Program-made: the position numbers and the translations under genes | Shown here: piece after piece, positions 14,125 through 14,275 of the stretch | How positions within the stretch are numbered: the stretch's first letter is position 1 | Layout: each line of letters begins with the position of its first letter | DNA from: a virus | Taxonomy: Duplodnaviria > Caudoviricetes | DNA: 64,000 bases | Strand: one strand, 5' to 3' | IMG/VR virus record: IMGVR_UViG_3300029305_006500 | The notes under the pieces: generated by a model | Told to the model about the DNA's origin: nothing | Database searches by the model: none | The model's input: the letters and a program-made list of their open reading frames with translations, nothing else

Positions 14125-14275
14125 TCCTCGGTAGCTCAGCTGGTAGAGCAACAGACTGGTCCGAATAGTTCAGTTGAGAGAACCGCCGGCGTAAGCAGGC
14201 TAGACGTGAGTTTGAGTCTCACTTTGGGCACCATTAATCTGTGGGTCACAGGTTCGAGACCTGTCCGAGGAGCCA
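14125..14275 (+). tRNA. trnN: tRNA-Asn(GTT) interrupted in the anticodon by a nested tRNA-like gene
   Basis: Exon 1 14125-14158 ends ACAGA-CTG; exon 2 14234-14275 starts TTAA-TCTGT; joined loop is CTGTTAA; perfect TCCTCGG/CCGAGGA acceptor; GCCA end. Confidence 0.85.
14159..14233 (+). ncRNA. Nested 75-nt tRNA-like insert (anticodon loop replaced by GTAA tetraloop)
   Basis: GTCCGAA/TTTGGGC acceptor plus ACCA, GTTC/GAAC D arm, GTGAG-TTTGAGT-CTCAC T arm. Confidence 0.8.

Follow-up and report, generated by a model that had tools for sequence, protein, structure and literature searches.

A tRNA-shaped insert splits the anticodon of a phage tRNA-Asn gene and belongs to a mobile family of candidate introns in gut phages

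Can a tRNA gene whose anticodon is split by an insert that itself has the shape of a tRNA still give a functional product, and if so, how would the insert be removed? The question is raised by positions 14125 to 14275 of a 64,000-nucleotide stretch of phage DNA, hereafter the window. It comes from a large uncultured phage and comprises the tRNA array together with structural genes; long structural ORFs, homing endonucleases and a GOLLD RNA are among its features. Sequencing runs of DNA from bovine gut and animal faeces contain this stretch. Read directly from the sequence, the locus consists of a first exon of 34 nt, an insert of 75 nt and a second exon of 42 nt, with the following features.

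14125..14158, + strand: tRNA-Asn(GUU) exon 1, with the acceptor 5' strand, the D arm, the 5' strand of the anticodon stem and positions 32-34 (C U G34)
14159..14233, + strand: putative tRNA-shaped intron, whole, 75 nt (MFE cloverleaf, Rfam tRNA match, family comparison)
14159..14165, + strand: acceptor-like stem of the insert, 5' strand, 7/7 pairs with 14223-14229
14168..14183, + strand: D-arm-like hairpin of the insert, 4 bp, 8-nt loop
14185..14200, + strand: short arm in the place of the anticodon arm, with a GUAA tetraloop (14191-14194) instead of a 7-nt anticodon loop
14206..14222, + strand: T arm of the insert, 5 bp, 7-nt loop UUUGAGU
14223..14233, + strand: acceptor 3' strand of the insert (14223-14229), discriminator A (14230) and CCA (14231-14233)
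14234..14275, + strand: tRNA-Asn exon 2, with positions 35-38 (U U A A), the 3' strand of the anticodon stem, the variable loop, the T arm, the acceptor 3' strand and GCCA

When 14125-14158 and 14234-14275 are joined, a 76-nt tRNA with perfect stems, a 7-bp acceptor, the loop CUG|UUAA and a GCCA end is obtained, which ARAGORN identifies as tRNA-Asn(gtt); the spliced form is a cloverleaf with a GUU anticodon and a body resembling other tRNA-Asn genes. The insert thus splits the anticodon between positions 34 and 35. The joined junction reads ...ACAGACUG|UUAAUCUGU..., and a 27-nt sequence spanning it is found contiguous in 18 IMG/VR contigs, within ordinary tRNA-Asn genes, which therefore fixes the borders of the insert to the base. 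Both results bear out the first-pass annotation of this DNA, according to which removal of 14159-14233 leaves a textbook tRNA-Asn. With introns allowed, ARAGORN sets the intron of this gene 1 nt too far to the right and miscalls the gene as Thr(ggt), but the true borders are clear from the Asn body and the contiguous homologues despite this offset. Without introns, the same program lists 29 tRNAs in the window, all within 17 kb, and both Asn and Asp are absent from the list; the window therefore has no candidate for Asn other than the nested gene, as had been claimed at the outset. The tRNA-Asp(GUC) gene, at 13563-13642, has an enlarged D loop and is overlooked by ARAGORN (Rfam 42.9 bits).

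Folded alone, the insert takes a cloverleaf as its MFE structure, with an acceptor stem that starts at its own first base and ACCA at its 3' end, and it matches the Rfam tRNA model with 35 bits (gathering score 29) and no other family. Its earlier description as a cloverleaf running from its own nucleotide 1 to ACCA and bearing a GUAA tetraloop is accordingly confirmed. In the 151-nt precursor the double cloverleaf, at -46.9 kcal/mol, lies 7 kcal/mol above the predicted MFE structure, at -54.1 kcal/mol; as tRNA folds often differ from the predicted MFE, this is a weak objection. Having neither a 7-nt anticodon loop nor U33 nor an anticodon, the inner element does not have the features of a decoding tRNA, and ARAGORN makes no call on it. 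It is neither a decoding tRNA nor a group I intron. Group I introns have a conserved catalytic core (P3-P9), are usually over 200 nt long and have a terminal G; those of cyanobacterial and plastid tRNA-Leu(UAA) genes resemble the present insert in their 34|35 site, are mobile and are phenotypically silent if removed, but the 75-nt insert is too small, ends in A and not G, and has no match to Intron_gpI on 14159-14233. Because it is devoid of a group I core, it cannot self-splice by group I chemistry.

A probable group I intron is nevertheless found at the same site in another gene of the window. The tRNA-Leu(UAA) gene at 765-1088 contains an intron of 237 nt at 34|35, preceded by U and ending in G, whose match to Intron_gpI (28.6 bits, E 1.5e-5) is below the gathering score. 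The suggestion that the Asn gene is split as in the case of the Leu group I intron consequently stands for the site, 34|35, but not for the kind of element, given that a group I core is absent from the insert. The exons of this Leu(UAA) gene are identical at 87 of 87 positions to those of a gene in a related phage (L002:1919-2072), which holds at 34|35 a tRNA-shaped insert of 67 nt, while the flanks of the two genes differ; thus, two unrelated kinds of intron compete for 34|35. No homing endonuclease gene lies within or beside the Asn insert; such genes are scattered through the tRNA arrays of the window and its relatives.

The relatives were gathered by means of the conserved C1 peptidase of the array, by pattern scans and from three whole records, and are animal-gut phages of about 220 kb; labels beginning with L and G denote loci and genomes, respectively. 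In the phage collection no close relative of the window was found. The peptidase, a C1-family cysteine peptidase, is encoded at 10304-11119 within the tRNA array, has more than 500 gut-metagenome homologues and is a handy marker of this phage group. In assemblies from JGI, ENA and NCBI the same design was found in 13 genes; their inserts, 12 of them distinct, are 51-123 nt long, and the split tRNAs are Asn, Lys, Gln and Leu(UAA). Split genes of the relatives are given below with the length of the insert.

Split Leu(UAA) genes: L002, 67 nt; L045, 68 nt; L176, 122 nt; L187, 51 nt
Split Gln(UUG) genes: L003, 115 nt; L045, 63 nt
Split Lys(UUU) genes: L005, 115 nt; L150, 77 nt; L179, 78 nt; L045, 123 nt
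Split Asn(GUU) gene: L182, 63 nt, a tRNA-Asn gene other than that of the window

In each of the 12 distinct inserts the acceptor is fully paired (7/7), as is the T stem (5/5, in register), and NCCA lies immediately before exon 2; nearly every stem position displays between two and five types of base pair among them, i.e. covariation. The search of related phages for the same nesting with covariation, which had been proposed as a check, therefore gave a positive result, and the identity between the borders of the intron and the mature ends of the tRNA-like fold, seen in the Asn gene, holds for each distinct insert. The insertion point follows position 34 in nine of them and position 35 in the other three. 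Cutting the genes at the ends of the inner fold gives in every case (13/13) a tRNA accepted by ARAGORN, with an anticodon that matches the tRNA body. Only the minihelix and the CCA are constant across the inserts, and the middle part ranges from a bare linker to a structured domain of about 55 nt. In the two 115-nt inserts (L003:3141-3255 and L005:282-396) a conserved extra domain of about 55 nt, with motifs such as GACUAUGGGGAAA, replaces the anticodon arm, and the 122- and 123-nt inserts (L176 and L045) harbor another conserved domain with compensatory hairpins; the extra domains of these 115-123-nt inserts match no Rfam family, known ribozymes included. Most matches of the T-arm pattern scans corresponded to ordinary genes for tRNA-Leu or tRNA-Thr, or to fragments of att sites beside integrases, and were discarded. 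A covariance model of the inserts was likewise set aside, as models made of an acceptor plus a T arm match every tRNA.

Homologous inserts occupy non-orthologous tRNA genes. The two inserts of 115 nt (type B) are 76% identical although one lies in a Gln and the other in a Lys gene with exons only 65% identical; likewise, those of 122 and 123 nt (type C), in a Leu and a Lys gene, share 72% identity against 52% for the exons, and the 63-nt type occurs in one Gln and one Asn gene. The insert family is therefore mobile. The gene order Leu(UAG)-Asp-Asn-Glu is kept in relatives, and in L002 and L003, which have about 60-70% protein identity, the syntenic tRNA-Asn is uninterrupted, so that the insertion at the Asn site is lineage-specific. 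Judged from this distribution, it could be recent and neutral or harmful. The concern that the insertion might be an unconserved one-off is in this way justified in one respect, the uninterrupted syntenic Asn of the relatives, but not in another, as the insert type recurs in other tRNAs and in the tRNA-Asn of L182.

Several observations bear on whether the split genes are in use. In diverged phages, the split Leu(UAA) and Lys genes differ in a compensatory manner in all four stems (acceptor, D, anticodon and T), while their cloverleaves are intact, which provides indirect but consistent indications that the exons of split genes may be under selection. Furthermore, the sole copy of an isoacceptor is a split gene in the near-complete relatives, namely Leu(UAA) in G001, Gln(UUG) in G002 and Leu(UAA) in G003, and G003 has in addition a single Lys gene and a single Gln gene, each of which is split. 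Since phage tRNAs are usually dispensable, this sole-copy status is weak evidence of need.

Based on these data, the best reading of the removal of the insert is a cut by RNase P, a second cut after the CCA and the action of a ligase: tRNA-trimming enzymes probably excise the insert, and an RNA ligase would then rejoin tRNA-Asn. End-processing is proposed because every insert begins at the +1 position and stops at the CCA of a tRNA minihelix, the features by which the enzymes that process tRNA ends know their substrates. We hypothesize that one tRNA fold forms inside another in the primary transcript, and that host RNase P would cut where the inner fold starts, between 14158 and 14159, leaving exon 1 with a 3'-OH. 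An endonuclease of the RNase Z/BN kind would cut after the inner CCA, between 14233 and 14234, leaving exon 2 with a 5'-phosphate, while the outer acceptor and anticodon stems would hold both exons together. An ATP-dependent RNA ligase, probably encoded by the phage, could then join G34 to U35 across the nick, yielding a functional tRNA-Asn, and the 75-nt mini-tRNA would be set free. A ligase fits this scheme because RNase P and RNase Z would leave the ends, 3'-OH and 5'-P, that Rnl-type ligases join. The delay or shielding brought about by the insert might have a purpose, for instance in timing or in escape from anticodon nucleases, as the conditional and shielding roles suggested in the first-pass annotation would imply. 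We assign a probability of roughly 0.55 to the reading of the insert as a mobile tRNA-shaped intron of gut-phage anticodon loops that is removed by RNase P, a post-CCA cut and a ligase.

A more demanding version, which we put forward tentatively and consider somewhat less likely than not, is that these mobile mini-tRNA introns define a novel tRNA splicing route, in which RNase P and a post-CCA endonuclease would be followed by direct sealing by a ligase, with no healing of the ends, and in which maturation would need the phage ligase and might shield the tRNA. Under this version, the anticodons with a hypermodified position 34 (Asn, Lys, Gln and Leu-UAA) would possibly be hidden from anticodon nucleases until ligation.

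Candidates for the sealing step are present in the relatives. Both G001 and G003 encode an RNA ligase of 209 aa (PF09414; locus L129:1483-2112), and G003 also has a ligase of the PF09511 (Rnl1) type; ATP-dependent RNA ligases of the PF09414 and PF09511 types join 3'-OH to 5'-P ends. A 472-aa protein found in G002 and G005 has an OB fold of the PHA02142 type and matches ligases weakly. When the ligases of the relatives were compared with the window by tblastn no match was obtained, the 64-kb window comprising only the tRNA array and structural genes. In addition, all three near-complete relatives encode, within a few kb of the tRNA array, a polynucleotide-kinase-like P-loop protein of 308-322 aa with an AAA_33/KTI12 domain (loci L244:1492-2418, L246:1492-2433 and G001:C1:138905-139315), which among proteins of solved structure is most similar to the kinase module of Clostridium thermocellum Pnkp, to Pnkp1 and to PSTK. 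This kinase-like protein near the array would be compatible with a heal-and-seal variant. RtcB, an RNase Z-type metallo-beta-lactamase, a CCA-adding enzyme and EndA (PF01974) were not found in the three relatives searched, and with no phage RNase Z or splicing endonuclease in them the cuts would therefore fall to host enzymes of tRNA-end maturation. RNase Z/BN-type activity cuts after CCA in some bacteria; to our knowledge, bacteria do not in general possess an activity that cuts precisely after an internal CCA.

The window exons are free of defects, the split genes of the family retain compensatory cloverleaves, some of these genes are the sole isoacceptor copies in near-complete genomes (Lys and Gln of G003 among them), and cuts at the inner tRNA ends restore the correct anticodon in 13 of 13 genes, all of which makes it unlikely that the insertion is selfish or accidental and never removed. 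The tRNA-Asn would then be dead, and at most a released inner mini-tRNA would be functional or selfish, a scenario for which the dispensability of phage tRNAs and the uninterrupted syntenic Asn of the relatives can be invoked, as can the free-standing anticodon-less tRNA-like genes of the array (e.g. 3146-3220), which may have a role of their own. Alternatively, the ends could be healed and sealed by a Pnkp-like kinase and a ligase of the phage, as in the T4 repair of PrrC-cut tRNA-Lys, the tRNA shape serving for recognition by that enzyme or for stability and not for RNase P/Z. The kinase-like protein near the array in 3/3 near-complete relatives, together with the RNA ligases, is what would be expected in that case, but kinase and ligase sets are common in large phages for the repair of damage by anticodon nucleases, whether introns are present or not; moreover, this explanation has no candidate endonuclease, considering that no EndA-type match in the three relatives searched and no BHB motif at the junctions were found, and it does not account for borders that are the tRNA +1 and CCA end in 12/12 inserts. 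We consider it unlikely.

The metagenomic origin of the window and the repeat-rich nature of tRNA arrays could also suggest an artefact of assembly, in which two tRNA genes were joined as a chimera. A chimera would not set a complete tRNA-like unit exactly between positions 34 and 35, however, and the same exact nesting is observed in 12 other genes from many independent JGI, ENA and NCBI assemblies. In fact, a second contig (L250, JGI sample 3300032167, 37.8 kb), which may share its source with the window, is 100% identical to it over 14,140 bp and covers both junctions. An exact search of IMG/VR with the window's own junction gave no match, the window's own contig was not among the returns of the pattern scans of IMG/VR and metagenome contigs, and in a look-up of the 75-aa ORF at 12090-12314 for further contigs with the junctions all matches ended before tRNA-Asn. 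On balance, an artefact is hardly credible.

Removal by tRNA end-processing enzymes and a ligase would resemble in part several known systems. Archaeal and eukaryal BHB introns, removed by EndA or TSEN with RtcB or Trl1 as the joining enzyme, may be regarded as analogous in that splicing is enzyme-dependent and the tRNA body holds the exons. Unlike them, the insert of the window has no BHB: its junctions flank a 7-bp stem, with strands of 3 nt and 8 nt on the two sides. Moreover, the family is located at 34|35 or 35|36, not at 37|38, the relatives have no EndA-type or RtcB genes, and the tRNAs are of bacterial type with an encoded CCA. A second analogy is offered by mascRNA, a tRNA-like signal excised from MALAT1 by RNase P and RNase Z, in which a cloverleaf devoid of a working anticodon loop likewise marks the cut sites of tRNA end-processing in a longer transcript. 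There, however, the process serves vertebrate 3'-end formation and the exons are not rejoined, and the Rfam mascRNA model has no match on the insert. In the case of T4 PrrC/Pnkp/Rnl1, a host defence nuclease breaks the tRNA at 33|34, leaving cyclic-phosphate and OH ends, and a phage ligase seals it. The parallel would be a break in the anticodon loop sealed within a folded tRNA, in phages that carry ligase and kinase-like genes, with the difference that the break in the tRNA-Asn of the window would be programmed by the intron.

Phage tRNA introns of a comparable kind have been noticed before. The tRNAs of Lak megaphages contain "enigmatic" introns, one of which may encode a tRNA itself, and gene finders misplace these introns by a base or two (Devoto et al. 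2019, PMC6784885, Fig. 4), while a 2026 survey of jumbo phages mentions tRNA introns that "could encode another tRNA" (PMC13037316). The statement of the first-pass annotation that no equivalent has been described cannot be maintained, as both papers already remark on tRNA-encoding introns in phage tRNAs, the mechanism not being given. Our literature search found no mechanistic paper on tRNA-like introns or nested tRNAs. The Lak introns are similar in that the anticodon loop of a phage tRNA holds an insert predicted as a tRNA, conserved where present and absent from some variants. They differ in belonging to code-15 phages of about 540 kb, whereas the relatives studied here are of about 220 kb with long ORFs under the standard code; the insert of the window is in another tRNA (Asn), and the two papers give neither a mechanism nor an analysis of the family. 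The class itself has thus already been remarked on, and what is new here is the documentation of the family, its mobility, its two insertion sites and the covariation of the exons.

Bacteria and their viruses are not known to remove tRNA introns other than by group I self-splicing. If the inserts are spliced, they would represent a third, enzyme-dependent route of tRNA splicing, composed of housekeeping tRNA-end enzymes and a ligase, and a new kind of mobile element "disguised" as a tRNA. Standard tRNA finders miss or mislabel the split genes (the Asn of the window is missed, or called Thr), which biases analyses of codon supply and recoding in large phages. For in vitro testing, the locus of the window offers a clean and short substrate of 151 nt.

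Other tRNA-like elements were observed in the array. Directly upstream of the nested gene, 14038-14117 may form a degenerate tRNA-like fold that is closed by 5 bp, contains a hairpin resembling a T arm and ends in an ACCA-like sequence; its folding z-score is not significant. The element at 3146-3220 is a free-standing anticodon-less mini-tRNA with an ACCA end and a 3-nt loop on the anticodon arm (Rfam tRNA 33 bits); it is not nested and has a counterpart at L003:2942-3013. Close to it, 2964-3136 is an odd tRNA-like element with an intact GUA anticodon arm, about 90 nt in the variable region and an ACCA end, which is conserved in L001, L002, L045 and L184 and displays a weak tmRNA match at 3077-3136; its call by ARAGORN as an intron-bearing Asn was rejected, since it is better read as a GUA-anticodon element. 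On the other side, 3226-3330 has a 7-bp acceptor-like closing stem and ACCA, with two T-arm-like hairpins inside. A tRNA-like unit with a 59-nt insert is located at 458-588, where sub-threshold matches to YrlA (Y RNA-like) are found at 394-489 and 555-618, and 8744-8856 displays a drum RNA-like match of 42.2 bits, slightly below the gathering score of 43. The GOLLD RNA, at 15212-15727 in the tRNA array, scores 155 bits (gathering score 150) and is also present in L003 at 15329-15844.
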